This document shows, piece after piece, positions 10,628 to 61,128 of a DNA stretch of 64,000 nucleotides (the first letter of the stretch is position 1; every line of letters starts with the position of its first letter). A program made the translations under genes and the position numbers. The stretch is from a virus (lineage: Duplodnaviria > Heunggongvirae > Uroviricota > Caudoviricetes), in IMG/VR virus record IMGVR_UViG_3300047392_000113, positions 55,152 to 119,151 of that record, one strand, 5' to 3'. Below the pieces are notes generated by a model that saw only the letters and a program-made list of their open reading frames with translations, was not told the DNA's origin and searched no databases.

Positions 10628-10822
10628 ATGAGTGAAACTGTTAAACAATTAGTTGACGCTATGATGGCTAAAGATGCCAATGGAACACAAGCTGCATTCC
10701 AAGCAGCAATGGCAGAAAAGATTTCTACCAAGTTAGACGACATGCGCTCTTCTATGGCACAGAGTATGTTCAAGACTCCAGAAGCAGCACCTACAGAGAC
10801 ACCAGTAGAAGCGACAGAGTAA
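10628..10822 (+). CDS. Small acidic prohead core protein (gp67-like by position).
   Basis: 64-aa ORF translationally coupled between portal and protease, as gp67 is in T4. No strong motif. Confidence 0.4.
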   Translation: MSETVKQLVDAMMAKDANGTQAAFQAAMAEKISTKLDDMRSSMAQSMFKTPEAAPTETPVEATE

Positions 10823-24677: not shown

Positions 24678-24687
24678 GGAGCTTACT

Positions 24688-36705: not shown

Positions 36706-37215
36706 ATGATTACTAAATCATTCGTACCCGCATTCTTTTCACAAGATGCATTCAAAGACATCGATAAACTATTTCTAGGATTCGATGACCAATTCAAGCA
36801 AATGCAACAACTGCATGATGACTTGACAAAAAACATTCCAAACTATCCTCCATTTAATGTCCGTAAGAACGGTAACACTTACACAATCGAATTAGCTGTT
36901 GCTGGTTTCGCACAAAACGAAATCGACATCACTATCGATGGTGGTAAGCTAATCGTCAAGGGCAACTCTGAGTCTACTGAACCAGAGGATAACTTTGTAT
37001 TCAAAGGTATCGCTAACCGTGCATTCACTCGTGCATGGGCTATCGGCGATACTTATGAAGTCAAAGATGCTGAGTTGTTCAACGGTATCTTGAAAATTGC
37101 GCTTGATAAGCTAGTTCCAGAAGAACAAAAAGCTAAGAAAGTTCCAGTAAAAACTAAAGGAAGCAAGCAATTTTTACAGGAGGATGGTTATGACAAAGCT
37201 GCTGAAAGCCTGTAA
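36706..37215 (+). CDS. Small heat-shock protein (Hsp20/alpha-crystallin family).
   Basis: Alpha-crystallin domain features (PPFNVRKNGNTYTIELAVAGF...IDITIDGGKLIVKG...GILKIAL). 169 aa. Confidence 0.8.
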   Translation: MITKSFVPAFFSQDAFKDIDKLFLGFDDQFKQMQQLHDDLTKNIPNYPPFNVRKNGNTYTIELAVAGFAQNEIDITIDGGKLIVKGNSESTEPEDNFVFKGIANRAFTRAWAIGDTYEVKDAELFNGILKIALDKLVPEEQKAKKVPVKTKGSKQFLQEDGYDKAAESL

Positions 37216-37518
37216 AGAAATCGTACTTGGAATTGCTGATGGCATTAATCAGTTTAAAACTTACAAGCAAGGTAAAGTAAAATGATGAACTTGCTCAAAA
37301 GACTGTCCAAGTTATTTGAGCAAAAATCCCAACTTGAGTTGTATATACTTTCTAAGAATCCACAATCTGCCGCAGATGTAGAGCACTGGTCTAGAAATTA
37401 TTCTCAAAGAAGGGGTTATACATTATGAACAACTGGATTCCAATGACTGATGACGACTGGGATTGGGTGAACGGTAAAGTTCCACCAAACCCAAATGATA
37501 AAACAAAGTGAGGAAATC

Positions 37519-37968
37519 ATGTCACTAACATTAAAAAATATTGAGAGTGCTTTAGCTGGTGAGTCTATGGCTCACATCAAGTATCGTTACTTCGCTAAGA
37601 TCGCACGTGAAGAAGGTTTCGAGGAAGTTGCTCAACACTTTGAGCATACAGCTGACCAAGAAATCAAGCACGCATGGGGTCATCTAGAATTGCTAATCGG
37701 CAAGCCATCCACTAAGGAATGCTTGGAGAAAGCGATCGAAGGTGAGACTTATGAGTATACAGAAATGTATCCGCAGTTTGAAAATACTGCAAAGGCAGAA
37801 CAAAACATTGAAGCTGTTAAAGAATTCAATGAGCAGGGTCGTGAATCAAACGAACACGCTCAACAATTCAAAGCAGTACTTGCAAAAGCAGAAAAGCGTT
37901 TCGCAGCTTTGAAGAAAGTTGAAGAGCGCCATGCTAATGCATACAAACAAGTTTTGGGAGGTCTATAA
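37519..37968 (+). CDS. Rubrerythrin-like ferritin-type diiron domain protein (lacks the fused rubredoxin-like domain).
   Basis: Paired diiron motifs E..H: ALAGESMAHIKYRYFAKIAREEGFEEVAQHFEHTADQEIKHAWGH and a second EGETYEYTEMYPQF...E half. Immediately followed by a separate rubredoxin gene. Confidence 0.75.
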   Translation: MSLTLKNIESALAGESMAHIKYRYFAKIAREEGFEEVAQHFEHTADQEIKHAWGHLELLIGKPSTKECLEKAIEGETYEYTEMYPQFENTAKAEQNIEAVKEFNEQGRESNEHAQQFKAVLAKAEKRFAALKKVEERHANAYKQVLGGL

Positions 37969-39264: not shown

Positions 39265-39452
39265 TGAAAGCGTTCCAAGAAACGACTAAAGACTGGGTAG
39301 GAAATGTGAGCAATCACATCTACTACCTGTCTGACGACAAGCGTAAGATGTACGCATTTTATAATGTTGATACTGGTGTCGTGAAGAAATTTAGTAAGCC
39401 ACTTGGTTTTGATCCACGTTACCGCACCTTTAAAGAATTGAAACGCAAATGA
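39264..39452 (+). CDS. Hypothetical small protein.
   Basis: 62-aa coupled ORF. Confidence 0.3.
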   Translation: MKAFQETTKDWVGNVSNHIYYLSDDKRKMYAFYNVDTGVVKKFSKPLGFDPRYRTFKELKRK

Positions 39453-40759
39453 ATATCAATGAGTTTTTCGAGAGTCTATCCAGCAACAACTCACGCAACT
39501 TTAAAATTGAGCAGCTGGAACAACAGCGCAATAATACTCTTTTGAGAGAAGTTGTTCGGTTGGCTCTCGATCCCTTCACACAGTTTTACATTCGGAAAAT
39601 CCCGAAGTACACCCCAAACACTGGTAAAGGTATTGCTCTTAAGTTTGCTCTCGATTCTCTTTATGACTTGTCATCACGCCAAGTGACTGGTAATGCAGGC
39701 ATTGCTCATCTTAAGGGTATGCTCGAAGCATTGAACATCGAAGACGCTAAAGTTATCGAACGCATTATTGCAAAGGATCTAAAATGTGGAGTAGCAATCT
39801 CAACCGCAAACGCAGTGTGGACTGGTTTGGTGAGCGAATATCCCGTGATGTTGTGCAGCCAGTTCGAGCAGAAACTCGTGGACAAGGTAAAGTTCCCAGC
39901 ACTGGTACAAACCAAAATGGATGGAATGCGGTTCAACGCTATCGTCCGCAATGGGGCAGTAGAGTATCGTTCCCGAAACGGTAAAGAGATCCAACTGCTT
40001 GGTAATCTCGATGAAGATTTTATTGCATTGGCTGGCGACATCGACTGTGTGTTTGATGGAGAACTAATTGTCAAAGACAAAGGTATCATTCTCGATCGTC
40101 AGACTGGTAATGGTATTCTCAACAAAGCCAACAAAGGTACAATCTCTGATTTGGAAGCACACAAGGTTCGTGCAACCATCTGGGATGTGATTCCATTTAT
40201 TCAATTTTCTGAAGGACGTTGCGACGTTCCCTATGGAAAGCGATGGGACTCTCTTTGCACGTTGGTGAATAAGAATAAACCCAACAAAGTTTCTACTGTT
40301 CAAAGCTGGGAAGTTGAGAACTACGAAACTGCAAAAGCGTTGTTTGAAGAACTACTGCAACGTGGTGAAGAAGGTATCATCCTCAAAGATAAGTCTGGTG
40401 TCTGGGAGGATAAACGTGCTAAACACCAGATCAAGTTCAAAGGGGAGATGGAGTGTGATCTCGAAATTCTCGCTGTGGAAGAAGGCACTGGCAAGTACGC
40501 TGGAAAACTCGGTGCTGTTGTATGTGGCTCCAGACTCGAAAACGGAAAGCGTCTTACCGTCTCTGTTGGTTCTGGTTTCAACGATGCTCATCGTGATAAT
40601 CTATGGGCTATTCGTGATAGTCTCATTGGTAAAATTGTTGCAGTAAAATACAACATGCGCATTCAAAACAAGCAGGGTGAGGAATCTTTGTTCCTTCCAA
40701 TCTTTGTTGAAGTGCGTAGTGATAAAGATGTTGCAGATTCTATTGGAGACATTAAATGA
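39449..40759 (+). CDS. gp30: ATP-dependent DNA ligase.
   Basis: Nucleotidyltransferase motif I VQTKMDGMR (KxDG), downstream motifs (FDGELIV, EGIILK), and a C-terminal OB region. 436 aa. Confidence 0.8.
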   Translation: MNINEFFESLSSNNSRNFKIEQLEQQRNNTLLREVVRLALDPFTQFYIRKIPKYTPNTGKGIALKFALDSLYDLSSRQVTGNAGIAHLKGMLEALNIEDAKVIERIIAKDLKCGVAISTANAVWTGLVSEYPVMLCSQFEQKLVDKVKFPALVQTKMDGMRFNAIVRNGAVEYRSRNGKEIQLLGNLDEDFIALAGDIDCVFDGELIVKDKGIILDRQTGNGILNKANKGTISDLEAHKVRATIWDVIPFIQFSEGRCDVPYGKRWDSLCTLVNKNKPNKVSTVQSWEVENYETAKALFEELLQRGEEGIILKDKSGVWEDKRAKHQIKFKGEMECDLEILAVEEGTGKYAGKLGAVVCGSRLENGKRLTVSVGSGFNDAHRDNLWAIRDSLIGKIVAVKYNMRIQNKQGEESLFLPIFVEVRSDKDVADSIGDIK

Positions 40760-47842: not shown

Positions 47843-49205
47843 ACTAATTTATGATGAACACTATTGCCGAAAAGTAATTCCCTTTATTAAAAAAGAATAT
47901 TTTGGCGATAAGAAAGAATCCATCGTAGCTACGATTGTATCAGAATTTTTCAGTAAGTATAACAAACCTCTAACGAAAGAAATCCTTTCGATTGAAATTG
48001 GTAATAGAAAAGACCTCAATGACAAAGAGTTAGCTGATGTTAACTCTTATGTTAATGAGTTAACTGACGCTCCAGTCAATGAAGACTGGATGATGGAAAA
48101 CACTGAAAAGTTTTGTAAGGATCGTGCAGTTTACAATTCAATCCTAAAGTCTATTCAGATTATTGATGGGCGTGAGAAGACTTTAACCCAAGATGCTATT
48201 CCTTCTATTCTTTCTGAAGCACTAGCAGTTTCTTTCGACAGTCATATTGGTCACGATTATTTGGGTGACCACGAATCTCGTTATGAATTTTATCACCGAG
48301 TTGAAGAGAAGATTGCCTTTGACTTGGAGATGTTTAACAAGATTACAAAGGGTGGTCTTTCTAAGAAAACTTTGAACATCGCACTGGCTGGTACTGGTGT
48401 TGGTAAGTCTTTGTTTATGTGTCACGTTGCCTCTGGTTGTTTAACACAGGGTAAAAACGTATTATACATAACAATGGAAATGGCAGAAGAGCGTATCGCT
48501 GAACGTATTGACGCCAATCTTTTGAATCTGACGATGGACGAACTAAAGGTTATCGATAAAGATATCTACGAAAGTCGTATCAATAAGATTACAAAGAAGA
48601 CTAAAGGCAGATTGATCATTAAAGAATACCCAACTGCTGGTGCGCACTCAGGTCATTTCCGTGCATTGTTAGAAGAATTAAAACTCAAACTAGAGTTTAT
48701 GCCAGACATTATCTTCATCGACTACTTGAACATCTGTGCAAGTCAGCGTATGAAGCAAGGGGCAAATGTTAATTCTTATACATATGTTAAGGCAATTGCA
48801 GAAGAGTTGCGTGGTTTGGCAGTCGAGTTTAATGTTCCAATCGTCTCAGCTACCCAAACCACCCGATCTGGATTTAGCAGTTCAGATCCAGGACTCGAGG
48901 ATACCTCAGAATCTTTCGGTTTACCTGCGACAGCCGACTTTATGTTTGCGTTGGTTAGTAATGAAGAACTAGAAGCACTGAATCAAATTATTGTTAAGCA
49001 GTTGAAAAACCGATACAATGATCCTAGTTATTTTAAAAGATTTGTTATTGGCATTGATAGGTCAAAGATGAAGTTATATGATGTAGAGGCTTCTGCTCAA
49101 GTAGGCTTAGCAGATTCTGGTCAAGATACTGGTCCAGTTTTTGACAAGGGAGACTTTGGTAAGAGAATGAAGTCTGAGGGTAGTTTTGACGGTTGGAAGT
49201 TTTAA
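47814..49205 (+). CDS. gp41: Replicative DNA helicase gp41 (DnaB family).
   Basis: IEQQILSRLIYDEHY (T4 VEIILSHLIFDQAY), Walker A LAGTGVGKS, ITMEMAEE, RIDAN, GLPATADFMFALV. All colinear with T4 gp41. Confidence 0.9.
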   Translation: MRIEQQILSRLIYDEHYCRKVIPFIKKEYFGDKKESIVATIVSEFFSKYNKPLTKEILSIEIGNRKDLNDKELADVNSYVNELTDAPVNEDWMMENTEKFCKDRAVYNSILKSIQIIDGREKTLTQDAIPSILSEALAVSFDSHIGHDYLGDHESRYEFYHRVEEKIAFDLEMFNKITKGGLSKKTLNIALAGTGVGKSLFMCHVASGCLTQGKNVLYITMEMAEERIAERIDANLLNLTMDELKVIDKDIYESRINKITKKTKGRLIIKEYPTAGAHSGHFRALLEELKLKLEFMPDIIFIDYLNICASQRMKQGANVNSYTYVKAIAEELRGLAVEFNVPIVSATQTTRSGFSSSDPGLEDTSESFGLPATADFMFALVSNEELEALNQIIVKQLKNRYNDPSYFKRFVIGIDRSKMKLYDVEASAQVGLADSGQDTGPVFDKGDFGKRMKSEGSFDGWKF

Positions 49206-49215
49206 GGAGAAAGAA

Positions 49216-50550
49216 ATGGTTAAAGTATTAGTTGCACCAATCAAGCACGATTGTTCTCATATGCAAGGACAATTTCCAACAGAGAAAGATTACGATCTTC
49301 TAATTGAAGAAGATATGGATGTTTATATGCCTGAGATTCCAGGACATCCTGAGTTAACTGGTACTGAAGAACGTATCATTCTAAAGTTTCGTAAGAACTA
49401 CTTCACCAAAGAACAACAAGACCAAGCATATGCTGGTTTGCGTGAAGCTGCTGTTGAAACTCAGAACCGTGGTATGGCAGCTGGACCACGTGGTGAGAAA
49501 TTAGGTAATCGTGAGTGGGTTACTGAATACGAATCTGACATCATTGATTACTTCTCAAATCCAGGTGCTAATTTGTACGGAGATGATCCAGTAGAAGACA
49601 TTCGTGCAAACCATAAAGGCAAGAAGGAACAACCTTCTACACGAAATAATGTTTGGGGTATTCAGGCAGTAAAACGTGATAACTTTGATTTTGAAACTTG
49701 GGTAGATACTTGTAAGCAATTACCTGATAACGAAAAGAAGAAAGAAGTAGACCGTATCGTTAAGAAGTACGTTTGTTCTACTACTTACGCTAATGGAGTA
49801 TTCTCTGGAATCGCTGGTTGGTTTGATCGTTACCCACGTATCCCTTATGGTCGTGCAACTTCTTATACACAGCGTGAACCTGAGAAGTTTGCTATGTCAT
49901 TCCCATTCCTGCAGACTCTGTCTAAAGGTTTCATGGATTTATTACCACAACGTTTTGCTGCCCAGATGAATGCTGCAAGTAAGGTTGACAGTGGTTTCTT
50001 AGTTCCAGGAACTCCATTCACTACTATCACGGTGAACAAAACATTCCGTACTGCTTGCCACTTTGACGCTGGTGATTTGACATCTGGTTTGAGTAACCTG
50101 TTGGTTCTGTCTAACAATGGTAACTACTCTGGTTGCTATCTTGTTGCTCCAGAATATCGTGTTGCAGTTAACGTTCGTCCAGGTGACTTGTTGTTGATTA
50201 ACAACCACGAAGTTATGCACGGTAATACTGAAATCAAATTGCTTGACGAAGAAGCAGAACGTGTTTCACTGGTTTGTTATTTCCGTGAGAAGATGCTTGA
50301 ACTTGGTACAAAAGATTACGAAGATTTGCGTTATGAGTATGTTGAATCTCGTCGTCTTAACAAGGAACATCCAGGACATCTGAATGAAGATGGTTCTCAA
50401 CGTCACCTCTGGAATGGTGTTAGCCAAGCTATGTGGGAGAACGAAGAATGGTATGACTTCTTGCGTAACAAAGGTCGCCAAGATTTGGTCGATAAGTATC
50501 ACCCACCAAAGACAACTACTGTTGGTGCTCTCGAGAATTTCTTCGGATGA
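49216..50550 (+). CDS. Large 2OG-Fe(II)-dependent dioxygenase (candidate nucleic-acid base hydroxylase or other hydroxylase).
   Basis: HxD CHFDAGD, distal His VMHGNTE, and Arg ~14 residues later (RVSLVCYFR). AGGAG RBS. 444 aa with a long N-terminal extension. Confidence 0.5.
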   Translation: MVKVLVAPIKHDCSHMQGQFPTEKDYDLLIEEDMDVYMPEIPGHPELTGTEERIILKFRKNYFTKEQQDQAYAGLREAAVETQNRGMAAGPRGEKLGNREWVTEYESDIIDYFSNPGANLYGDDPVEDIRANHKGKKEQPSTRNNVWGIQAVKRDNFDFETWVDTCKQLPDNEKKKEVDRIVKKYVCSTTYANGVFSGIAGWFDRYPRIPYGRATSYTQREPEKFAMSFPFLQTLSKGFMDLLPQRFAAQMNAASKVDSGFLVPGTPFTTITVNKTFRTACHFDAGDLTSGLSNLLVLSNNGNYSGCYLVAPEYRVAVNVRPGDLLLINNHEVMHGNTEIKLLDEEAERVSLVCYFREKMLELGTKDYEDLRYEYVESRRLNKEHPGHLNEDGSQRHLWNGVSQAMWENEEWYDFLRNKGRQDLVDKYHPPKTTTVGALENFFG

Positions 50551-51146
50551 TCTTAGAAGCATTTCCAGAGCCGATCTATAAAGGTGAGATGGTTTTCTCT
50601 AACGAGGTACTGTCTTACTTTAATTCGGCTAGAGAAAAAGGTGGTTACAAAAACATCTCTGGTAACTATACATCCAATGATAGTTTTGTTTTAGAAAATG
50701 AAGAAATGTCTGGTGTAAAGATCCAAGCCCAACACCATCTAGATTACTATCTCAAAAATATCATAGGTGCTGGTAATGTTAGTTTGGAAATTACACAGTC
50801 TTGGTTAAACTTTAATGACTATGCTTCTTCACATCATACACACATTCACGTGAACAGTATTGTCAGCGGAGTAATCTATACATCACCAAATCCAGCACCA
50901 CTTGTTGTGTTCAGGAAGCAGGATTATTTCCCACTTAGACCGATGATAACTAATATGACAGAGTACAATAATCCTATGAGAGTTATTGATGTCAAGCAGG
51001 GTGATATTGTTTTGTTCTCTTCACAACTACCTCATGGTGTTCAAGCAAACAAAACGAATAAAACTAGAACATCTCTGGCATTTAATACTTTCTACAAAGG
51101 TGTTCTTGGAAGCGCACCAAACTTAACTCACTTGGAGATCTCTTAA
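50547..51146 (+). CDS. Second 2OG-Fe(II) oxygenase-like protein (PhyH-like).
   Basis: His-rich metal site candidates SHHTHIHVNS and a C-terminal GDIVLFSSQLPHGVQANKTNKTRTSLAFN signature typical of the oxygenase C-termini. Confidence 0.4.
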   Translation: MILEAFPEPIYKGEMVFSNEVLSYFNSAREKGGYKNISGNYTSNDSFVLENEEMSGVKIQAQHHLDYYLKNIIGAGNVSLEITQSWLNFNDYASSHHTHIHVNSIVSGVIYTSPNPAPLVVFRKQDYFPLRPMITNMTEYNNPMRVIDVKQGDIVLFSSQLPHGVQANKTNKTRTSLAFNTFYKGVLGSAPNLTHLEIS

Positions 51147-51862
51147 TGTGTGCCGTTATTGGGGCTGTTATTCAAAAGCCCACTACTAAAGATTTTGATA
51201 TGTTGAAGCGTGTCTTCCACGAATCTCGTATTCGTGGATTGCATGCCACTGGTATCTCGTTTCTACCGAAGTGGTCTACTGGTATCGAAACTATCAAAGA
51301 ACCTATCCCTGCAGATAAGTTCATTGAAAAGTTTATGCACAATGACAACTTAGCAGATATGGTTGCTGATGATGGAAACCTTTATCTAATCGGACATTGT
51401 CGTTACAGTACTTCTGATCTTGAGTACAACCAACCAATCGGTAATAGCTATATGAGCGTTGCACATAATGGTGTTATCACGCAAGAACTTCCAGAGAACT
51501 GGGAGAAGTTGTATGGTTACAAATGCGATGGTAAGAATGATACTGAATTGTTGGTGCACACATTTGCTTCTGGAAAGTCTCCGTTAGTAGAGTGGCAAGA
51601 TTCTTCTCTTGCAGTATGTGTTCTTAATAAAGGTAGAACACTTACAGCATTCCGTAATGGAAAGCGACCATTATATTTGACAAGTTTAGATAATGGTTGT
51701 ATAATTACTTCTACTGCCGATGTTATAAAACGTGCGGGTATCGAAGAAGAACCATTCTTACTCAATATGAATATGTATTGCGTCTTTGATGGTGATTTAA
51801 CTATGTCTATTGAAGCTGTGCCAATTGAAGGAGCAGTTGATCTACAAAATGCTATTTGTTAA
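51146..51862 (+). CDS. Class II (Ntn) glutamine amidotransferase domain protein.
   Basis: N-terminal nucleophile MCAVIG (Cys2 after Met removal), as in GATase type 2 / asparagine synthetase N-domains. 238 aa stand-alone. Confidence 0.6.
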   Translation: MCAVIGAVIQKPTTKDFDMLKRVFHESRIRGLHATGISFLPKWSTGIETIKEPIPADKFIEKFMHNDNLADMVADDGNLYLIGHCRYSTSDLEYNQPIGNSYMSVAHNGVITQELPENWEKLYGYKCDGKNDTELLVHTFASGKSPLVEWQDSSLAVCVLNKGRTLTAFRNGKRPLYLTSLDNGCIITSTADVIKRAGIEEEPFLLNMNMYCVFDGDLTMSIEAVPIEGAVDLQNAIC

Positions 51863-52487
51863 CTCTACAAAAGTCGAACAACTTATTGCCACTAGTCCAG
51901 CTGGTAAGAACACAAAGTTCTTATCGACTGCACATTCATTATGGTATCGGTTTAAGAATTATGAAAAGTGCCCACCGATGGCTTACGAAGACAACGGTGA
52001 TGTTGTATGCTTAATCTTTGCTACATTTAATCGAGATGGTTATGCCAATCTGTATGAGATTGTTACACTCGAAGGAAAAGAAGGAAAAGGATATGCGTCA
52101 AAGTGTTGGGATTCGTGGATCAAATATGCAGTCGAAGAACGAAAAACTCAACGTCTCAAAATCTCCTGCACTCCCTCATCTGTCAGCTGGCACTTACGGA
52201 ATGGCTTGGTCTTCTGGGCAGTTGATCCAACAGGTTCACTCCGTAGCGACCAGCCACTATTCCCTACACGTACAGAACAAATTGCCTACAGAGACAAAGC
52301 AATCGTAAATCCACTTCAAGCACTTCCACCTTACAAAGCTCGTGAACAATTCCGAGCAGAAGGATTAGAATCTTATTCATGGGGTGAGAAAAAGAAAGCT
52401 AAAACTCAAACTGCTATCGATGCAGTTGGTAAGGCATGGTTACGAGAAGCATTGATGGATCAACCATCACTAGAAGAATTTTTATAA
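51849..52487 (+). CDS. GNAT-like acyltransferase domain protein with C-terminal extension.
   Basis: Putative acetyl-CoA binding motif EGKEGKGYASKCWDSWIKYAVEE resembling GNAT motif A (Q/RxxGxG/A). Confidence 0.35.
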   Translation: MLFVNSTKVEQLIATSPAGKNTKFLSTAHSLWYRFKNYEKCPPMAYEDNGDVVCLIFATFNRDGYANLYEIVTLEGKEGKGYASKCWDSWIKYAVEERKTQRLKISCTPSSVSWHLRNGLVFWAVDPTGSLRSDQPLFPTRTEQIAYRDKAIVNPLQALPPYKAREQFRAEGLESYSWGEKKKAKTQTAIDAVGKAWLREALMDQPSLEEFL

Positions 52488-53506
52488 TGGATTATCGTTT
52501 AAAAGAGAATCGCCGAGAAGCGTTCATTCGTTGGTATGCTTGGTCGTTGAAATATGATGACTGCGATCCAGCAGTCTGGGCTACGAACTATCTACACAAT
52601 AGATACAACCACAATGATGAAGAACGTATTTGGCTTGCTTGGTTGTATGGTAATACTTACCAACTCCCAACTGCATGGGTTTTAAAGAATGAATTTCCTG
52701 ATTATGAATTAGCCACAGTTGATCGTATCACTCAATGGAACACAACTAATTATAAACGTCTGCGTTATCAAACAGACACAAAGTGGAACAAGGGACATCT
52801 ACCATCGATGTTCGAATCATATCAGAAGTTTATTGGTGATGGCACTCAACGTGAGAAAATGGAGTCTTATTATGGAGACAGTGAAAAACAAAATTTTACA
52901 AATTTGTGGAATGTTCTTAAAGGAGAGCTTCATAAGTTTGGGCGTTATAGTACTTGGTTCTATATTCAGCATCTTAAGCACACTGCTAATATTGTTGTTG
53001 AGCCCACTAGTCTTATGCTGGATGATTATGATGGCTCTCGCTCTCATCGTAATGGATTACTTTATGCCCTTGGACAAGAAGACGATGTGGATCGAAAACT
53101 CACTGCAGCGGAGTATGGAAGACTTGAATCGCACGGCACAAGCATTATCGAAGAAATGAAACAGCGTTTCCCTGAGTTGAAATCCCAGATTGATTTCTTT
53201 ACAATGGAAACATGCCTTTGTTCTTTTAAGAAAATCTTTCGTGAGAAGCATGGACGTTATCTTGGATACTATCTGGATCGTCAGGCAGAAGAAATTGTCC
53301 AAGCTGAGAAAGACGGTTGGTATGGTATCGAGTGGCAGGTTATGTGGGACGCACGTAATGAAACCATTGACTTGAGACTCGATGATAAACGTGGTATTGA
53401 TAAAGAAAGATTCTCTAACTTTATTCGTACAGGTAAAATGGAAAACTTAGGATGGATGTTCGATGATGAAGAACCTATTCTAATGGGATTGGAAGCGTTC
53501 GCTTAA
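52487..53506 (+). CDS. Hypothetical 339-aa protein immediately upstream of a P-loop kinase. Candidate DNA-base transferase (aGPT-Pplase-like) by context only.
   Basis: No motif recognised by eye. The assignment rests on gene neighbourhood. Confidence 0.25.
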   Translation: MDYRLKENRREAFIRWYAWSLKYDDCDPAVWATNYLHNRYNHNDEERIWLAWLYGNTYQLPTAWVLKNEFPDYELATVDRITQWNTTNYKRLRYQTDTKWNKGHLPSMFESYQKFIGDGTQREKMESYYGDSEKQNFTNLWNVLKGELHKFGRYSTWFYIQHLKHTANIVVEPTSLMLDDYDGSRSHRNGLLYALGQEDDVDRKLTAAEYGRLESHGTSIIEEMKQRFPELKSQIDFFTMETCLCSFKKIFREKHGRYLGYYLDRQAEEIVQAEKDGWYGIEWQVMWDARNETIDLRLDDKRGIDKERFSNFIRTGKMENLGWMFDDEEPILMGLEAFA

Positions 53507-53516
53507 AGGAAATACT

Positions 53517-54125
53517 ATGTCATTTGTTGATAAATTGGGTGTGCAGGATCAGATTAGTGTTCAACTTATTAAGAACACTTTAAAGACTCGTAAAATTATT
53601 GCTGTAGGTGGACAACCTGGAACTGGTAAGACTACCCTATTCCGTAAGTATATGGAAGGTAAAGACTGGATCGTTGGTGAGCCAGCTAAGCTAGTCTCAG
53701 CTTCTTACAATGCAGATCGAGATCTATACATCCTCGGTAAATATGATGAAGGTGAAACCTTTGCTGGAACAGATCGTCTTTCTATGGCGGTTCAACCACC
53801 TCTTCAAGAATGGGTTGCCTCTCACAACTGCAACATCCTTTTCGAGGGAGATCGAGTCTTTAATCAGTCTTTCTTGGAGTTCTGTATGGGACTACCGAAT
53901 ACAGACTTACAGGTGGTCTATTTGAAGGCTCCGAAGACTCTTCTAGAGCAACGATATAAGGATCGAGGATCCGAACAGTCCGAGCAATTCCTAAGAGGGC
54001 GAGAGACTAAATATAGTAATCTATTATCGAATTTTGAGTTAATGCCCTATATTACTGAGTTCAGCAATACTAACTTAGAGGAACAAACGAAAGTCCTAAC
54101 CTTCTTGGATAAACATCTAGGCTGA
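53517..54125 (+). CDS. P-loop kinase (polynucleotide-kinase / 5-hydroxymethyl-dU DNA kinase-like).
   Basis: Walker A IIAVGGQPGTGKTTLF similar to the T4 Pnk kinase N-terminus (IILTIGCPGSGKSTWA). 202 aa, with no phosphatase domain. Confidence 0.55.
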   Translation: MSFVDKLGVQDQISVQLIKNTLKTRKIIAVGGQPGTGKTTLFRKYMEGKDWIVGEPAKLVSASYNADRDLYILGKYDEGETFAGTDRLSMAVQPPLQEWVASHNCNILFEGDRVFNQSFLEFCMGLPNTDLQVVYLKAPKTLLEQRYKDRGSEQSEQFLRGRETKYSNLLSNFELMPYITEFSNTNLEEQTKVLTFLDKHLG

Positions 54126-54147
54126 GGTTAGGGCTTTCTGGGAAGCT

Positions 54148-54846
54148 ATGAATTTCCTAGAGAAAGCCAACTTCGACTGGATGGAAATGCTCAATTTTTA
54201 TGAGCGTCCATTTAGAGCTAAACTCATTCCTGCGAAAATCTGGAGAGACTTAGACGAGTATGAAAATGACTCGGCTGGTCTCTCAAACTATTTTAGGAAG
54301 TGGAAAACTAAGATAGAGTTTAGAGATCCACCTAAAAAGTCTAAACTATGGACCAAGTATGTAGCTGTGGGTGGCGAATACGCACCAGATGAGAGACAGT
54401 GCGCTATTCAGATTTACACGTTGAACTTCGACAAACATGAGTTCGACCAGAAGACTTGGGATAAATTTAAGTATCGTGTCATTCAAACTTTGATGCACGA
54501 GATGATTCACTTCATGCAGTATGATCGTCGTTTTGACGAATCCAGTGGTTACGTAGTCCCATATAAAAGAGTAGGGCATTCTTTAAAGGACGCTGAACGT
54601 AGATACCTATCAGAGTTCGATGAGATTCAGGCATATGCTCACTGTGTCTATCTCGACTATAAAATGAACAAACCTAATGTTCCTCTGCACATACTATTGA
54701 ATCGTTGCAAGACAAAACGAGACTCCTCAACTCTACACTATTTCTTAAAGACGTTCAACTACGACTTTAGAAACAACATCTCCCCTCAAAAAATTATTCA
54801 GCAAATCGGCAAGTGGGATAGAAAGTATAATCGACTAACTAAATAG
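54148..54846 (+). CDS. HExxH zinc-metallopeptidase-like protein (SprT/Wss1-like).
   Basis: TLMHEMIHFMQYD motif with a downstream Glu/His. 232 aa. Confidence 0.45.
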   Translation: MNFLEKANFDWMEMLNFYERPFRAKLIPAKIWRDLDEYENDSAGLSNYFRKWKTKIEFRDPPKKSKLWTKYVAVGGEYAPDERQCAIQIYTLNFDKHEFDQKTWDKFKYRVIQTLMHEMIHFMQYDRRFDESSGYVVPYKRVGHSLKDAERRYLSEFDEIQAYAHCVYLDYKMNKPNVPLHILLNRCKTKRDSSTLHYFLKTFNYDFRNNISPQKIIQQIGKWDRKYNRLTK

Positions 54847-55603: not shown

Positions 55604-55611
55604 TATAAATA
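55604..55611 (+). promoter_or_regulatory. Exact T4 late promoter octamer TATAAATA upstream of the capsid-targeting-motif gene cluster.
   Basis: TATAAATA 28 nt upstream of the 55639 ATG. Confidence 0.5.
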
Positions 55612-55638
55612 AGATTATTACTTTATAGATGGATTCCA

Positions 55639-56418
55639 ATGAAAGATTACAAACAATTCCTAAGAGAATTGCCGTCCAAAACTGTCGTTTTAGCGTGCGG
55701 GAGATTTAATCCTCCTACATTAGCCCATGAAATGATAGTGAAGACTGTCAAGAAACTGGCTGAGTCGAAAGGCGCTGACCACGTAGTCTATGCATCCAAT
55801 GTAAGCGATGCGAAAAAGAATCCTCTATTAGTAGAAAAGAAACTTCAGTACCTAGAACTGGTATTCCCTAAGACCAACTTTGTTGAGAGTGGGGATAACG
55901 TCGGTGAGGTTATTAAGAAGCTGAAGGAAAGTTATAAGAATATCATCGTTGTCACTAGCGCTGACAAGGTTCAATCATTGAAGAAATATATGGTTGAAAC
56001 TGTATCCATTGTTGACAAGGATCCAGACAGTGAAGACTCTGTTAGAAGTCTGGCATCAAAGGGTTTATACGAAGAGTTTAAGAAGAATCTTCCTACTTCT
56101 ATTCGTGAACTTGATAGTCGTCGCTTGATGAATGATATGCGTATTGGTTCTGGATTGGAACCGATCAAAGAACAGATTAACTTGGTAAAAGATAGTCTCA
56201 GAGAACAGTATTTTAGAGGTGAGATCTTCAATATAGGAGATCTTGTTGAAAACTGTGGCGTTGAATATCAGATTGTTAAACGTGGTTCAAATCACTTGCT
56301 TTTGAAAGACGAATCAGGTAAACTTGTATCTAAGTGGATTCAAGAAGTTACACAAAAAGATATTAGATCAGATGAACCTTTCTTTAAGGAATCGTTCAAA
56401 GAGTGGAGAAAGAAATAA
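55639..56418 (+). CDS. HIGH-motif nucleotidyltransferase-fold protein (paralog A) with T4-like capsid targeting sequence at the N-terminus.
   Basis: N-terminus MKDYKQFLRE matches T4 IP capsid-targeting sequence MKTYQEFIAE. ACGRFNPPTLAHEMIV is a (T/H)xGH nucleotidyltransferase motif. Paralogous to the 59030 ORF. Confidence 0.5.
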   Translation: MKDYKQFLRELPSKTVVLACGRFNPPTLAHEMIVKTVKKLAESKGADHVVYASNVSDAKKNPLLVEKKLQYLELVFPKTNFVESGDNVGEVIKKLKESYKNIIVVTSADKVQSLKKYMVETVSIVDKDPDSEDSVRSLASKGLYEEFKKNLPTSIRELDSRRLMNDMRIGSGLEPIKEQINLVKDSLREQYFRGEIFNIGDLVENCGVEYQIVKRGSNHLLLKDESGKLVSKWIQEVTQKDIRSDEPFFKESFKEWRKK

Positions 56419-56864
56419 TGGACGAGTTAAGAACAAGAATTAAAATTTTACTTGCCAATGCTACAGTTATGTACTATAAGGCACATCAGTTCCATTGGAA
56501 CCTTGAAGGCATCGAATTCACTCAGTACCATGAATTCTTTGGGGATATTTACACTGATGTGTATGCTTCAGTAGACCCAATTGCAGAATTGCTACGTAAG
56601 CTAGATGATTACGCTCCAGTTAGTATTGACGAATTGTACAAATTTAAAACACTTGAAGAAGAAACTACTCGTGTTGTTCTTCTAAAAGATATCCTTGTCA
56701 GTTTAATCAAAGCAAATGACGAAGTTCTTTCTAATTTGAATAAAGTGTTTGAAGTTGCGAATGCAAACAAACAACAAGGTGTGTGTAACTTTATCGCAGA
56801 TAGAATAGATACTCACCAAAAACATGGTTGGTTCCTAAAGGCATCAGCCAAAAAGGTAGGATAA
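56418..56864 (+). CDS. Dps-like ferritin (DNA-binding protein from starved cells family).
   Basis: LLANATVMYYKAHQFHWNLEGIEFTQYHEFFGDIYTDVYASVDPIAELLRKLDDYAP matches the Dps ferroxidase-site helix pair (H..HWN...F...HE..). Confidence 0.75.
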   Translation: MDELRTRIKILLANATVMYYKAHQFHWNLEGIEFTQYHEFFGDIYTDVYASVDPIAELLRKLDDYAPVSIDELYKFKTLEEETTRVVLLKDILVSLIKANDEVLSNLNKVFEVANANKQQGVCNFIADRIDTHQKHGWFLKASAKKVG

Positions 56865-56865
56865 A

Positions 56866-58038
56866 ATGAAATCATTTATCGATTTTCTAAAAGAAGAAGC
56901 CGAAGAAGGTGCTAAGTTAAAGCACATTCACCACGCTGAAGATCGCCCATTGATGCATGGTGCAAGTGGTTTTGAGCACACTCATGAAGCATTGACAAAA
57001 GCGCATGAACATATGAAAGCTGGTAAAAAGTCCAGCGACTTGACCATGAAGTATGATGGTTCTCCATCAGTTGTTTATGGTCATCATCCAGAAACAAAAA
57101 AATTCTTCGTTGCATCTAAGTCTGCATTCAACAAAGATCCAAAGATCAATTATACTCACGAAGATATCGAAAAGAACCATGGACATGCTCCAGGTCTTGT
57201 TACTAAACTAAAAGCTGCTCTTGATCACCTACCAAAGATTGCACCAAAGAAAGGTGTTTATCAGGGTGACATTATGCACAGTGGTGACGTCGAGAAAAAG
57301 AAAGATGGCGTCTCTTTCAAACCAAACACTATCACATATACGGCTAAAGGTGATCAAGCCAAAGCCCATGAGAATGCTAAGTTAGGTATTGTCACTCATA
57401 CCAAGTATGAAGGTAAGACAATGGCTTCTATGAAAGCTACACCTAATGTTAGCGACAAAGAATTTGGTCACCATAAAGATGTAGCACATCATACTGCTGA
57501 ACACGATACATCTAAGATCAGTTATCCAGAAAAGGCTCAGAACGAATTCCAAAGCCATATGGATAAGGCAAAAGAAATCCACGATAAACATGGCGCAGAA
57601 ATGTATGATGCTGCAAAGCCACATCGTGGTGAGAATACTCATCTAACTACTTACATTAACAGCACTGTTAAAAATGATGAGAAGCCTTCTGCAGAAGGTT
57701 TACAAAAGCACATAACTTCTCAAGGAGAGAAGGCAGCTGCTAAAGTTAAGACAGACAGAGCCAAATCCGCTAAAATGTCTGAACATCAATCTCAAGTTGA
57801 TCACATCGAACAGAATAAAGAACACTACAATAATCTTCTAACGATGCACGATCATTTACAAAAAGCCAAGAATACTCTAGTGAAACATCTAGAAACTCAC
57901 GAAGGTGGTTATGAACACCACATCAATGGAACTAAATCAAAACCAGAAGGGTTTGTTGTAAACCACAAAGAAGAACCTACCAAGTTGGTTAATCGTGCTG
58001 AGTTTGCAAAGGCTAACTTTTTAAAGGCAAAGAAATGA
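56866..58038 (+). CDS. His/Lys-rich protein with capsid-targeting N-terminus and covalent-nucleotidyltransferase-like motifs (KxDG ... EGFVV ... KxK). Possible RNA/DNA ligase-like enzyme.
   Basis: N-terminus MKSFIDFLKE (CTS-like). LTMKYDGSPSVVYG (motif I-like) and PEGFVVNHKE...KANFLKAKK (motif IV/V-like). ~35 His in 390 aa (HIHHAED, HTHEALTKAHEHM, HHTAEHD...). Confidence 0.4.
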   Translation: MKSFIDFLKEEAEEGAKLKHIHHAEDRPLMHGASGFEHTHEALTKAHEHMKAGKKSSDLTMKYDGSPSVVYGHHPETKKFFVASKSAFNKDPKINYTHEDIEKNHGHAPGLVTKLKAALDHLPKIAPKKGVYQGDIMHSGDVEKKKDGVSFKPNTITYTAKGDQAKAHENAKLGIVTHTKYEGKTMASMKATPNVSDKEFGHHKDVAHHTAEHDTSKISYPEKAQNEFQSHMDKAKEIHDKHGAEMYDAAKPHRGENTHLTTYINSTVKNDEKPSAEGLQKHITSQGEKAAAKVKTDRAKSAKMSEHQSQVDHIEQNKEHYNNLLTMHDHLQKAKNTLVKHLETHEGGYEHHINGTKSKPEGFVVNHKEEPTKLVNRAEFAKANFLKAKK

Positions 58039-59030
58039 TTAAATTTAAAGACTACATTGACGAAGGTAAACGTGGCTTGTGGGACAACATCCACGCTAAA
58101 CAAAAACGTATCAAAGCTGGTTCTGGTGAACGTATGCGTAAACCTGGAAGTAAGGGTGCTCCAACTGCAGCAGCATTGAAGGCATCTCAGAATGAAGAAG
58201 TTTCTCTTGATGAGGGAATTGATCCTAGTGAAGTTGCTGGTAATCCAAAGATGTATAATGCAGATACTGCAAAGAAAGCATACTACCACAAGAACGCCAG
58301 TGCCAGTGACAAAGAATCTCTAGCAAAACATCTAGATCGTCATCATGGCAATAAAGAGTGGCGCACACCAGTTAAAGAAGAATTAACAGCAGAAGAGATG
58401 TTTGATCTTATCGAAGAAATGGCTGTAGAACTTGCTGAAGAAACTCAACTTGATCTTGAACAAGTTTGGGAAGAGTTAGACGAGTTTAGTGATAACGAAT
58501 TACTAGAAGCATGCACCTGCTGGACTGGTTATAAGCGCAAGACTGGAACTAAGCCATGTGAAGAAGGTTCTTGTGTTAAAGAAGAGTCTGAACTTGATGA
58601 GGGTATGAAACAAAACCTAAGAAAGTATGTTCCTGGTTATGCCAAGCGTGAAATTGATAAAAAGATGGATGCTGGAAAATTTGGTAAAGATGATGTGGCC
58701 AAGGATGCTAATTACTATCGCTATAAAAATATTCAAGACAAAATCAAAAAAGAAGAAGTTGAACTTGATGAAGCAGCTGTTGACGCTAAAGGTTACAAGT
58801 CTTCTACTGGTGGCTTGACTCAAAAGGGTCGTGATGCTTACAACCGTAAAGAAGGCAGTAATCTCAAGGCTCCAGTAACAACATCACCATCTAAGCTAAA
58901 GAAGGGTAGTAAAGCTGCCAATCGCCGCAAGTCTTTCTGTGCACGTATGAGTGGCGTGGAAGGTCCAATGAAGAAACCAAATGGTGAACCAACACGTAAA
59001 GCGTTGGCATTAAGAAAGTGGAACTGCTAA
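58035..59030 (+). CDS. Lys/Glu-rich protein with capsid-targeting N-terminus (candidate internal head protein).
   Basis: N-terminus MIKFKDYIDE (CTS-like). Highly charged, with a Cys cluster CTCWTGYKRKTGTKPCEEGSC. ATGA coupling. Confidence 0.4.
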   Translation: MIKFKDYIDEGKRGLWDNIHAKQKRIKAGSGERMRKPGSKGAPTAAALKASQNEEVSLDEGIDPSEVAGNPKMYNADTAKKAYYHKNASASDKESLAKHLDRHHGNKEWRTPVKEELTAEEMFDLIEEMAVELAEETQLDLEQVWEELDEFSDNELLEACTCWTGYKRKTGTKPCEEGSCVKEESELDEGMKQNLRKYVPGYAKREIDKKMDAGKFGKDDVAKDANYYRYKNIQDKIKKEEVELDEAAVDAKGYKSSTGGLTQKGRDAYNRKEGSNLKAPVTTSPSKLKKGSKAANRRKSFCARMSGVEGPMKKPNGEPTRKALALRKWNC

Positions 59031-59641
59031 TGTTATCATTTCTTTCATTCCTAAAAGAATCTGCTGGCGAGAAACACGGTGTTCTTGCCTTTGGTCGTAT
59101 GAACCCTCCGACTGCTGGACACGAACAAGTTATCAATAAGGTTCACGAAGTTGCTAAGATGCACAAGGCTGAACATCATGTTGTTCTTTCTCATAGCCAC
59201 GATTCAAAGAAGAATCCTCTTCCAGTAGATCGTAAAGTTGAACACGCTAAGAATGCATTCCCTGGAACTAATGTAGTTGGAGCATCGAAAGAAAAACCAA
59301 CGATTCTACACCATGCTGCCGAACTACACAAAGCTGGTGTTAAGCATCTTCATGTTGTTGCTGGTTCTGATCGTAAAGATAACATGCACGAATTGTTGCA
59401 TAAATATAATGGGCAGAAATCTGCACATGGTCATTATAACTTTAAGTCAATCACAGTTCACTCTTCTGGTGATCGTGATCCAGACTCTGAGGGTACTGAA
59501 GGTGTTTCTGGAACTAAGATGCGTGAACATGCATCTCATGGTGATACAGAATCTTTTAACAAGAACTTACCTTCTAAGATGAAGCCAGAGCATAGAGAAG
59601 CACTGTATCACGACTTACGTAAACATATGGGGCACGAATAA
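59030..59641 (+). CDS. HIGH-motif nucleotidyltransferase-fold protein (paralog B), His-rich, with capsid-targeting N-terminus.
   Basis: N-terminus MLSFLSFLKE (CTS-like). AFGRMNPPTAGHEQVI parallels ACGRFNPPTLAHEMIV of paralog A. C-terminal SGTKMRE resembles the ISSTxIR motif of cytidylyltransferases. TAATG coupling. Confidence 0.5.
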   Translation: MLSFLSFLKESAGEKHGVLAFGRMNPPTAGHEQVINKVHEVAKMHKAEHHVVLSHSHDSKKNPLPVDRKVEHAKNAFPGTNVVGASKEKPTILHHAAELHKAGVKHLHVVAGSDRKDNMHELLHKYNGQKSAHGHYNFKSITVHSSGDRDPDSEGTEGVSGTKMREHASHGDTESFNKNLPSKMKPEHREALYHDLRKHMGHE

Positions 59642-60777
59642 TGAAAACGTTTAAACAATTTTCTGAGAAGATGGATATGAAATCCGCATCTATGGGAGAT
59701 GTGATTAAAGATTTTCAAGCATCTGATGCGCCACAGTTCTCTGGTAAGAGCAAAGAAAAACGTCGTCAAATGGCCATCGCTGCTAAGATGCAAGCAGAAG
59801 GTACTATCCAATCAAACGGTACAGATAAGATCGAGCTTGGTGTTCCTGATGTAGCTACTAAAAAGAAAACGGATAAAGAGATGAAAGATCAACAAAACGA
59901 ATCATGGGGTTTTGATACAGCTGCTATGGCCAAGCAAGAACTAGCAGACGCTAAGAATAAGAAACACCGCAAACGTGGTAAGGTTGCTAACCTTCTACGT
60001 AAGTTGGGTATGAAAGAAGAAGTTCAACAAGACCCTCTTCTAGAATATGAAATCTCTCACGATGGTAATGGTAACTATCGTGACGATGAAGGTAACGAAT
60101 GGAGTGACAAAGATAAGAATCGCCCACGTGGTTCATTCGCTCGTCGTCACACTATCACTTCTAAAGAACCAGAGCATCCACATGCTGTTCATATCAATGG
60201 TAAGAAGTGGAAGTCATTCGGTTCCCACTCCCACGCAACGAACGTAGCTAAGAAAATTAAAGGAGCAACTGTGCACAAAGAAGAATTAAATCAAGAAGGT
60301 ATTCTTGATAAAGTCAAAGCTGTAGGTAAGAAGGCATTAGATACACTAACGCATGGTTCAGACGAAGATTTGCGCAAAGACCTTCAGAAGAAGGTTGGTG
60401 TGCCACAAACTGGTCAAAAGCCAAAGAAACTTCGTGAGTTCATTGAAACTCTTAAAGAAGGCAAACCTACTGCTTCTAAAGAAGTCGATGTAGATAAAGT
60501 TCACGCTGCGGGCGAGAAACCACACGAAGAAAAGTGGGAAGACGCTAAGAAAGTTAAGAAAGAATCCTATACTGCAGACCAACTTCTACAGGCTTTAAAA
60601 GAAGGTATGTGGCCAGGAACTCCAGAGTATACTGCTAAGTTTGGTAATCAAGCTAAACAAGGTGGAGGTGCTGGTGTTAAAAAGGGAAGTCGTTATGGTG
60701 GCTCACTACAAAAGCCAGAAAAAGAAGATGATAACGATGCTGATGACAAACCAGCAAAGAAACCAAAGAATAAATAA
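59641..60777 (+). CDS. Lys-rich low-complexity protein with capsid-targeting N-terminus (candidate internal head protein).
   Basis: N-terminus MKTFKQFSEK (CTS-like). Extremely Lys/Glu-rich. TAATG coupling to paralog B. Confidence 0.4.
   Translation: MKTFKQFSEKMDMKSASMGDVIKDFQASDAPQFSGKSKEKRRQMAIAAKMQAEGTIQSNGTDKIELGVPDVATKKKTDKEMKDQQNESWGFDTAAMAKQELADAKNKKHRKRGKVANLLRKLGMKEEVQQDPLLEYEISHDGNGNYRDDEGNEWSDKDKNRPRGSFARRHTITSKEPEHPHAVHINGKKWKSFGSHSHATNVAKKIKGATVHKEELNQEGILDKVKAVGKKALDTLTHGSDEDLRKDLQKKVGVPQTGQKPKKLREFIETLKEGKPTASKEVDVDKVHAAGEKPHEEKWEDAKKVKKESYTADQLLQALKEGMWPGTPEYTAKFGNQAKQGGGAGVKKGSRYGGSLQKPEKEDDNDADDKPAKKPKNK
60769..60776 (+). promoter_or_regulatory. Late promoter-like AATAAATA upstream of the 60807 ORF.
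   Basis: NATAAATA 30 nt upstream of the ATG, with AAGGAG RBS at ~60793. Confidence 0.3.
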
Positions 60778-60806
60778 GATTACAGTCCAAAATCAAGGAG
60801 ATTAAA

Positions 60807-61097
60807 ATGGCACTATGGGGAAATACAGATAATGCACAAAGCAAGCCAAAGTTCGTTACACAAGACGCTAACGGAACTATTGGTGGTACTGCTGGTGTAG
60901 CAATCACTTACGGCGTTGACGCTGTAGAAGAAAACGTAGCTTCTAACAAAGCTAAAGGTATGCAACACGCTGGATGGGTTCGTCGTGTAACATATACCGA
61001 TGCACAAGGTAACGTTCGCAACAAGACTGAAACTCTAGTTGCTATGGGTTCCATGACTGGTGACGCTGCTGACGACTCAGTTGTAGCTGACGCTTAA
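60807..61097 (+). CDS. Hypothetical protein (96 aa), likely a late/structural gene.
   Basis: Strong RBS, late promoter-like motif, Gly/Thr/Ala-rich composition similar to structural proteins. Confidence 0.35.
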   Translation: MALWGNTDNAQSKPKFVTQDANGTIGGTAGVAITYGVDAVEENVASNKAKGMQHAGWVRRVTYTDAQGNVRNKTETLVAMGSMTGDAADDSVVADA

Positions 61098-61128
61098 TTT
61101 ATTATACTGGAGGGCTTAGTCCCTCCAC

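Follow-up and report, generated by a model that had tools for sequence, protein, structure and literature searches.

Within a 64,000-nucleotide (nt) stretch of phage DNA (the window; positions 55,152 to 119,151 of IMG/VR record IMGVR_UViG_3300047392_000113), a compact gene block encodes five proteins sharing a ten-residue N-terminal sequence, hereafter called the tag. Taken as a whole, these decapeptides are best explained as a T4-type capsid targeting sequence (CTS) mounted on unrelated cargo proteins, a reading to which we assign a probability of about 0.72. The tagged products are two HIGH-motif nucleotidyltransferases (NT1 and NT2), a DUF6267 protein, a modular protein ending in a DUF6321 domain (open reading frame (ORF) 58035) and a Lys-rich protein (ORF 59641); a Dps/ferritin-like protein encoded inside the block is untagged, as the initial annotation had noted (Table 1). 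The five N-termini quoted in that annotation, at ORFs starting at 55639, 56866, 58035, 59030 and 59641, are all present, and its proposal of a T4-type capsid-targeting signal is upheld by the positional match to T4, the occurrence of the tag on 11 unrelated protein clusters and virion mass spectrometry (MS) of three cultured relatives.

In the window, the tag is specific to this block. Scanning every ATG that opens an ORF of at least 50 amino acids (aa) on both strands (n = 586 sites) with the pattern M..[FY]..[FY][LIS].[EK] returned five sites, all of them starts of the five adjacent block genes, so that the suggested search for the same prefix elsewhere retrieved these five only; a looser pattern adds one window site, internal to another gene. 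Codon choice differs among the DNA of the five tags, which places their similarity at the level of protein. Phenylalanine or tyrosine occupies positions 4 and 7 in all five genes, and [L/I]-x-E occupies positions 8–10 in four (L-R-E, L-K-E, I-D-E and L-K-E). The motif F/Y-L/I-x-E at residues 7–10, initially ascribed to every ORF, thus holds for these four, the corresponding residues of ORF 59641 being F-S-E-K.

The likeness to T4 extends to individual residues. Comparison with the reference sequences shows that MKTYQEFIAE, initially attributed to the T4 internal proteins IPI, IPII and IPIII alike, is the start of IPII and IPIII; IPI starts MKTFKEFTST, with which the tag of ORF 59641 agrees at seven of ten positions. 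For the T4 IPIII tag, the suppressor analysis of Mullaney and Black assigned targeting to residues 4 and 7 and processing to residues 8 and 10 (PMC9026906). Judged from the sequences, the conserved tag positions (4, 7, 8 and 10) are those mapped as functional in T4. The window also encodes the gp21-type prohead protease that the initial annotation had recognised; it aligns with T4 gp21, including the GELxHP and GVSSRxLGS segments. A gp22-type scaffolding core protein is encoded next to it, and alignment of the major capsid protein gp23 with its T4 counterpart reveals ALFE|A as a candidate maturation site, close to where T4 has FLTE|A.

The comparison set comprised 80 IMG/VR loci encoding DUF6267 relatives with 59–92% identity. 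There, the tag lies within the first residues of 145 of 1356 plus-strand ORFs, of none of 961 minus-strand ORFs and of none of 237 members of untagged neighbouring gene families. The 84 distinct tags have F/Y at positions 4 and 7 (100%), L/I/V at position 8 (96%) and E at position 10 (99%), frequencies which are not independent evidence because the collecting pattern fixed those positions. Among the free positions, 2 holds K, L or I (K being favoured), S is preferred at 3, K at both 5 and 9, and E at 11, yielding the clade consensus M-[KLI]-S-F-K-x-[FY]-L-K-E, after which comes a short acidic/Ala linker. In the AlphaFold (AF2) model of the DUF6267 protein, residues 1–19 have a predicted local distance difference test (pLDDT) score below 50 and contain a short helix at 4–13, and the AlphaFold model of NT2 places a helix at residues 4–12; in this geometry residues 4, 7 and 8 would share one face. 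The isoelectric point (pI) of all five mature tagged proteins is 8.7–9.4, against 5.7 for the acidic, untagged Dps-like protein (PF00210, E=3.8e-20), none of whose 29 homologues in the related loci is tagged.

The tag is, furthermore, not bound to one protein family. When 111 distinct tagged proteins were clustered after removal of their first 15 residues, 11 clusters without detectable mutual similarity were obtained: DUF6267, the nucleotidyltransferases, DUF6321/CWTGYK and eight more, namely the ORF 59641 family and seven that match no window gene. Moreover, the same enzyme occurs with and without the tag. The DUF6267 proteins of P-HM2, HTVC008M, S-SZBM1, S-CRM01 and S-CREM2 are untagged and start about 16 residues later, at a conserved (N/K)xHLEHxED motif which is found at residue 17 in the window protein, and those of Melnitz ((L)INFSKYITE) and Stenotrophomonas phage DLP_6 (MMKFTQFLAE) are tagged. 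This fits a portable sorting label that is gained and lost between lineages.

Virion proteomes of cultured relatives place tagged orthologues in association with particles. Scanning the whole 174,876-bp genome of S-CREM2 (4,841 start sites) found the strict tag at three annotated starts, those of gp6 (S-adenosylmethionine (SAM) hydrolase, MKDFDSFLEE), gp14 (kinase, (V)KRFDAFLTE) and gp154 (cytidylyltransferase, MKNFSSFLTE), and all three products are among the 52 proteins of the published virion list (Fisher p=0.013; PMC10665884, Table 3). Under a looser pattern, two further S-CREM2 sites qualify: gp13 (MKDLHSFLTE), a virion protein, and an ORF of 55 aa whose product went undetected. Neither the untagged neighbouring genes nor the untagged DUF6267 homologue gp87 appear in that list. 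In S-SCSM1, the virion ‘NMNAT’ ORF91 begins MKSFLQFLKEAAESGA, with the tag MKSFLQFLKE, and the virion cytidylyltransferase S-SZBM1_140 begins MRFRQFIIEA, a tag variant shortened by one residue; S-SZBM1_141, the untagged DUF6267 protein encoded beside it, is not in the virion table. From residue 11 onward, the sequences read AAESGASVQAK in S-SCSM1 ORF91 and ADEKQQQAPK, FDRDQESLEESSLSR and EETEAHK in S-CREM2 gp154, gp6 and gp14, respectively. S-CREM2 gp12–15, all virion-detected, are orthologues of S-CRM01 g128–131, which lie between DUF6267 and a nucleotidyltransferase and hence in the same locus as the window block; g130 (MISFDQFLSE) is the kinase reported in S-CRM01 virions.

Virion cytidylyltransferase/NMNAT-like proteins, kinases and a SAM hydrolase have been reported across S-CREM2, S-SZBM1, S-SCSM1, S-CBWM1 and S-CRM01, in papers that describe their detection only, propose no targeting signal and leave true packaging open (PMC10665884, PMC9146016, PMC9602691). 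Our literature search returned no paper linking a capsid targeting sequence to cyanophages. The description of the protein set as previously undescribed thus holds only in part. Altogether, virion MS of the relatives is good but indirect backing for the tag as a packaging signal. As a separate observation, the virion protein gp12 of S-CREM2 (annotated ‘Cas9’) and g128, its orthologue in S-CRM01, have a tag-like stretch (…LRFASFMAE|A and …LSLDSFIKE|A, respectively) that is preceded by a conserved MxxSRWxxWS leader and lies about 18–20 residues from the start; this may be a longer propeptide variant or reflect a mis-called start.

Several points weigh against a packaged, processed and injected protein set. 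ORF 59641 has S-E-K at positions 8–10 and its first [LI]xE at residues 133–135, leaving no cleavage site near the tag, and the NT1 tag, kept in relatives, has Q instead of E at position 10 in some of them. The proteomes stem from shotgun MS of CsCl-purified particles, whose authors warn that abundant late proteins could co-purify, and the S-CREM2 enrichment rests on three to four genes. S-SZBM1_139 and S-CREM2 gp155/156 were virion-detected although they lack a canonical tag, which means that the tag is not the sole route into the virion. Depletion of internal [LI]xE sites is strong in the DUF6267 clade, with 21 observed vs 126 expected (O/E (observed/expected) 0.17), and in NT2 (0 observed vs 11 expected), but such sites are enriched in NT1 and the DUF6321 family, so that there is no uniform avoidance signature; single DUF6267 orthologues with and without the tag show no clear difference in such sites. 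Uniform avoidance of internal [LI]xE as a hallmark of packaged proteins was consequently rejected, its restriction to DUF6267 and NT2 making it weak evidence. Cleavage and injection in this phage are presumed wholly by analogy with T4. Finally, the exact TATAAATA late promoter that the initial annotation had placed before the block is there, but it occurs only once in the window, where chance would give 3.1 copies, and is therefore not significant alone.

The exact T4 late promoter was for this reason discarded as stand-alone support and the ATAAATA core used in its place. This core lies 9–61 nt upstream of seven gene starts, including those of the sheath, tube and gp22 genes (28–61 nt), the block and the gene at 60807, the last two sharing the extended form ATAAATAAGATTA. 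Its position upstream of structural genes and the block supports a presumed late expression of the block. The block genes are tightly packed, with stops and starts that overlap or abut, and no excess of sigma-70-like promoters or terminators was found inside the block. The next transcription unit (60770–61127), which repeats ATAAATAAGATTA, encodes a 96-aa homologue of a cyanophage ‘virion structural protein’ (S-SZBM1_136, PHM2_169; phrog_26159, E=4e-22) and ends in a strong hairpin terminator at 61108–61127.

Alternative explanations differ in how well they withstand these data. The N-terminal helix might be a virion or assembly signal other than a head-core one, with the tail, baseplate, neck or a membrane-bound assembly site as destination, and might be neither cleaved nor injected. 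Amphipathic helices are generic interaction modules, shotgun MS of the relatives’ virions gives no localisation, and E10 is not available for cleavage in ORF 59641 and some NT1 relatives. We nevertheless regard this as unlikely: the tag positions coincide one-for-one with the CTS positions for head targeting and gp21 cleavage in T4, the L-x-E site is present in four of the five genes and in almost every relative, repeated L-[DE]-E linkers occur in tagged polyproteins, and the phage encodes the gp21/gp22 system.

Somewhat less credible is that the tagged proteins are abundant late cytoplasmic enzymes, with the tag serving oligomerisation, stability, translation initiation or as a degron, and that their detection in virions reflects contamination. 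The authors of the S-CREM2 and S-SCSM1 papers raised contamination themselves, and some peptide counts are low (gp154, 3; S-SZBM1_140, 2; gp13, 1), yet 19–28 peptides were obtained for gp6, gp12 and gp14, and the same protein class was found in four different proteomes. In S-CREM2, all strictly tagged genes were detected, in contrast to untagged late neighbours and the untagged DUF6267. Neither gp23 nor the sheath protein, the products of the most highly expressed late genes, carries the tag, which is accordingly not a general expression feature, and contamination would additionally require a coincidental likeness to the experimentally defined CTS of T4. Hardly conceivable is that the shared N-termini lack a function and simply reflect recent duplication or gene conversion between adjacent paralogues, the refuting case named in the initial annotation: NT1 and NT2 are indeed paralogous (36% identity) and the genes adjacent, but the similarity ends after about 11 residues, the tag DNA uses different codons, the downstream parts represent four or more unrelated folds within the window and the 11 unrelated clusters in relatives, the motif is kept in loci only 59–65% identical as well as in Melnitz, DLP_6, S-CRM01, S-CREM2 and S-SCSM1, and the presence or absence of the tag on the same enzyme across phages rules out recent duplication.

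Under the preferred capsid-targeting reading, late transcription starting from the box at 55604 would cover the block from 55639 to 60777 as a single unit. The tag would fold into a short amphipathic helix whose residues 4, 7 and 8 point to the same side and which docks the cargo on the gp22 core during prohead building, and the shell would close after docking of the tagged proteins. By analogy with T4, gp21 would cut after Glu10 at [LI]-x-E, and in ORF 58035 also after internal E-x-E-L-[DE]-E linkers, and the basic mature proteins would remain inside the head alongside the DNA and be carried into the host together with it. The delivered cargo would then comprise the RNA-ligase-like DUF6267 protein, two NMNAT/PPAT-fold nucleotidyltransferases, a Lys-rich protein and small basic peptides from a polyprotein. 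Its cellular job would most likely be counter-defence or takeover in the first minute of infection, for which RNA repair, nucleotide chemistry and protection of modified DNA are plausible examples; such a role would suit this phage because its DNA appears to be hypermodified (see below).

The cargo folds could be assigned for the DUF6267 protein and the two nucleotidyltransferases. The DUF6267 protein has the fold of a ligase nucleotidyltransferase domain (RNA/DNA-ligase-like). The KxDG and EGxVV motifs initially pointed out in this 390-aa protein correspond to K62-Y-D64-G65 (motif I) and E361-G362-x-V364 (motif IV, assigned like K373 as motif V by position only), and K62, D64, G65, E361, G362, V364 and K373 are invariant in 54 DUF6267 sequences. 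PF19782 is its only family match: searches against Pfam and NCBIfam gave no ligase model, and no PDB sequence matched at E<=1. Compared with ATP-dependent RNA ligases (the adenylyltransferase domains of Rnl2, REL1, NgrRnl and Trl1), the window protein is set apart by the absence of a sequence-level match to any ligase family, a 120-residue helical insert between the domain halves and a very high His content. It looks like an RNA-ligase-like protein and putative enzyme. Literature searches on DUF6267 and on ‘cytitidyltransferase’ returned nothing. The window DUF6267 protein contains 38 His and NT2 25, against 2–14 in the DUF6267 proteins of cultured relatives, so that this extreme is confined to the present clade; metal binding by the two His-rich proteins is a possibility. 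The genes of these His-rich proteins flank or adjoin the Dps/ferritin-like gene.

NT1 and NT2 have the Rossmann-like nucleotidyltransferase fold and are NMNAT/PPAT-fold nucleotidyltransferases. As initially proposed, they are paralogous HIGH-motif proteins, and both exceed the gathering cut-off of PF01467 (26.5 and 21.7 bits for NT1 and NT2 vs 21). The motif reads GRMNPPTAGHE in NT2 and GRFNPPTLAHE, with Ala for Gly, in NT1. NT1 matches phrog_3041/395 (‘cytidyltransferase’, E=4.5e-33) and has an extra C-terminal domain; a phmmer search with NT2 gave no PDB match. A role in the metabolism of nicotinamide adenine dinucleotide (NAD), which had been suggested for the set, is disfavoured: both proteins score 17–19 bits on NMNAT equivalog models with cut-offs of 112–341 and are not clearly NAD enzymes, and a NadM-type NMNAT/Nudix protein and NAMPT are encoded elsewhere in the window (Table 1). 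NT1 and NT2 are thus not the only NMNAT-fold enzymes of the phage, and their identification as its NAD-salvage NMNAT was rejected. The NAD salvage pair at 23703–26085 resembles phage NAD+ reconstitution pathways.

ORF 58035 appears to have a modular composition consisting, in order, of a GLWDNIHAK peptide, an acidic helix, a CxCWTGYK...GSC knuckle, a 57-residue piece and DUF6321 (PF19846, E=3.3e-25; phrog_16028 on residues 12–50). Its linkers read ...EEVSLDE|G (residue 60), ...EESELDE|G (189) and ...EEVELDE|A (246). In relatives, each of these modules can directly follow a tag, the modules being shuffled behind it. E-E-V-E-L-D-E followed by G, A, M or R marks module borders in DUF6321-family proteins (58035–59030 and loci L004, L029, L038 and L043), with up to three acidic linker copies in one protein (L043, 12477–13574), and ExEL[DE]E occurs 12 times in tagged proteins and not once in 174 untagged neighbours. 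The simplest reading of these sequences is a polyprotein that would be cut by an L-x-E-specific protease into small basic peptides, which in turn would be functional analogues of the T4 internal proteins. The statement that the cargo is not of the usual small basic type was therefore overstated, since all five mature proteins are basic and ORF 58035 looks like a polyprotein that would yield small basic peptides. ORF 59641 belongs to no known family in Pfam or PHROG. T4 Alt was considered as a precedent for F-x-E cleavage in this protein and rejected, Alt being cut after ITE-6 (PMC5694885), which provides no precedent for an F-x-E cut.

Among known systems, the T4 CTS of IPI, IPII and IPIII is the closest: as there, the window tag has ten residues from Met1, aromatics at positions 4 and 7 and [LI]-x-E at 8–10 (PMC9026906, PMC3012670), and sits on unrelated, basic, presumably late-expressed proteins whose genes cluster at a variable locus, in a phage that has gp21 and gp22. 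Unlike T4, the window phage belongs to a different family-level lineage, its cargoes are not homologous to any T4 internal protein, three of them being enzymes of 200–390 aa, one gene is polyprotein-like with putative internal cleavage linkers, which the T4 internal proteins lack, and both packaging and cleavage are predictions here. The mature parts matched PF01467, DUF6267, DUF6321 or nothing in Pfam, PHROG and NCBIfam, and showed no homology to IPI, IPII, IPIII or Alt; such homology is not defining, because the T4 internal proteins are mutually unrelated. At the level of sequence, four of the five genes display every feature of the T4 CTS/internal-protein system, the differences lying in lineage, cargo and polyprotein architecture.

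T4 Alt, a packaged ADP-ribosyltransferase (ART), is a precedent for an enzyme that is loaded into the head by an N-terminal propeptide, trimmed by gp21 and injected, its action falling at the very onset of infection. Its propeptide comprises six residues (ITE-6), and its C-terminus is trimmed as well (PMC5694885). In contrast to the ART fold of Alt, the window enzymes have ligase-like and HIGH-nucleotidyltransferase folds. NT1 and NT2 are homologous to the virion cytidylyltransferase/NMNAT-like proteins of the cyanomyoviruses S-CREM2, S-SZBM1, S-SCSM1, S-CBWM1 and S-CRM01, which are encoded at the same locus as in the window, downstream of uvsX/gp41 and next to DUF6267. The cyanomyovirus DUF6267 proteins, however, are untagged and undetected in virions, whereas those of the window clade are tagged. 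Giant phages such as phiKZ and SPN3US likewise possess head-internal proteins, enzymes included, that are processed at x-x-E, some at multiple sites, by a homologous prohead protease; their propeptides mostly exceed 100 residues and the motif is A/S/G-x-E, in contrast to the short T4 type with L/I-x-E in the window.

If the capsid-targeting reading is correct, the tag offers a mechanism for the recurrent unexpected enzymes in cyanophage virion proteomes. From ten N-terminal residues one could predict which proteins the abundant T4-like phages of marine and fresh waters deliver before gene expression begins, the likeliest anti-defence or takeover effectors. DUF6267, a family of thousands of unannotated proteins, gains a fold, a polyprotein route to small internal peptides is suggested, and the gain and loss of tags on the same enzyme across lineages shows that loading is evolvable. 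The protein-delivery trick of T4 may work in phages of environmentally important hosts. A bolder extension, which we advance tentatively and consider somewhat doubtful, is that the T4 targeting code is conserved across the whole T4 superfamily, reaching Kyanoviridae-type phages of cyanobacteria, SAR11, methylophiles and freshwater hosts, and has in this clade made pre-made, co-injected effectors of two nucleotidyltransferases and of an RNA-ligase-like enzyme that is normally cytoplasmic, delivered along with a diced polyprotein as a first-minute counter-defence kit, for example for RNA repair after anticodon-nuclease attack or for protection of hypermodified DNA. In that case, the injected proteome of thousands of uncultured aquatic myoviruses would be readable from N-termini.

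Table 1. Features of the 64,000-nt window, in order of position.
Feature	Coordinates	Strand	Remarks
Large terminase	4532–6106		T4-type head/tail module
Sheath	6184–8352		T4-type head/tail module
Portal	8994–10625		T4-type head/tail module
gp21-type prohead protease	11801–12454	+	phrog_207 E=3.8e-75; presumed tag-removing enzyme
gp22-type scaffolding core protein	12501–13517	+	phrog_237 E=3.2e-83; presumed docking partner of the tags
gp23 major capsid protein	13530–14831	+	phrog_138 E=8e-162
NadM-type bifunctional NMNAT/Nudix	23703–24677		238 bits on bifunctional NMNAT/Nudix equivalog, cut-off 397
Nicotinamide phosphoribosyltransferase (NAMPT)	24688–26085		NF006629 E=2.9e-196, above cut-off
Tet/JBP 2-oxoglutarate (2OG)-Fe dioxygenase	49186–50550		PF12851 E=1.4e-23
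GATase-like protein	51146–51862		
Amino acid:DNA transferase	52436–53506		PF18724 E=5e-22
P-loop nucleotide kinase 3	53517–54125		PF18751
HExxH SprT-like protein	54148–54846		
Late-promoter-like box TATAAATA, extended ATAAATAAGATTA	55604–55611	+	28 nt before the first gene of the block
NT1, HIGH-motif nucleotidyltransferase, 259 aa	55639–56418	+	Tagged MKDYKQFLRE
Dps/ferritin-like protein	56403–56864	+	Without tag; start GTG 56403 or ATG 56418
DUF6267 protein, His-rich, 390 aa	56866–58038	+	Tagged MKSFIDFLKE
Modular protein (ORF 58035), 331 aa	58035–59030	+	Tagged MIKFKDYIDE; DUF6321 at end
NT2, HIGH-motif nucleotidyltransferase, 203 aa	59030–59641	+	Tagged MLSFLSFLKE
Lys-rich protein (ORF 59641), 378 aa	59641–60777	+	Tagged MKTFKQFSEK

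The window has a GC content of 40% and is coding almost wholly on the plus strand. Its gp23 is 64–66% identical to the capsid proteins of P-TIM40, P-RSM6, S-WAM1, S-SZBM1 and the methylophage Melnitz, and a megablast search with the tagged block gave no nucleotide match among 50,697 phage records, which indicates an uncultured phage with relatives at the protein level only. The phage is an uncultured Kyanoviridae-like member of the T4 superfamily, and an identical DUF6267 protein is present on a 170.8-kb metagenomic contig. Between portal and gp21, in the place of the T4 core proteins gp67/gp68, lies a 181-aa ORF (10822–11367). Its N-terminus, MRYTEFSKSIKE|MSIIE|D, has aromatic residues spaced as in the tag and contains I-x-E twice. 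The ORF has no PHROG match and a weak DUF5505 match only; its product may be a prohead core protein.

Just upstream of the tagged genes, a cluster resembling DNA base-hypermodification genes spans 49186–54846 (Table 1), and the phage appears to hypermodify its own DNA. In T4, packaged IPI shields modified DNA against type IV restriction, and because of this protective function the adjoining position of the cluster may be meaningful. A small ORF (23330–23644) without a family match has a signal-peptide-like start followed by long Gly/His runs (MKTLVALILVASIAGTAVAKGGGGGGGHGGGGGH...). Further accessory genes encode Hsp20 (36706–37215), rubrerythrin as a second ferritin-like protein (37495–37968), an ATP-dependent DNA ligase (39449–40759) and a MoxR/CbbQ-type AAA ATPase (28695–29867).

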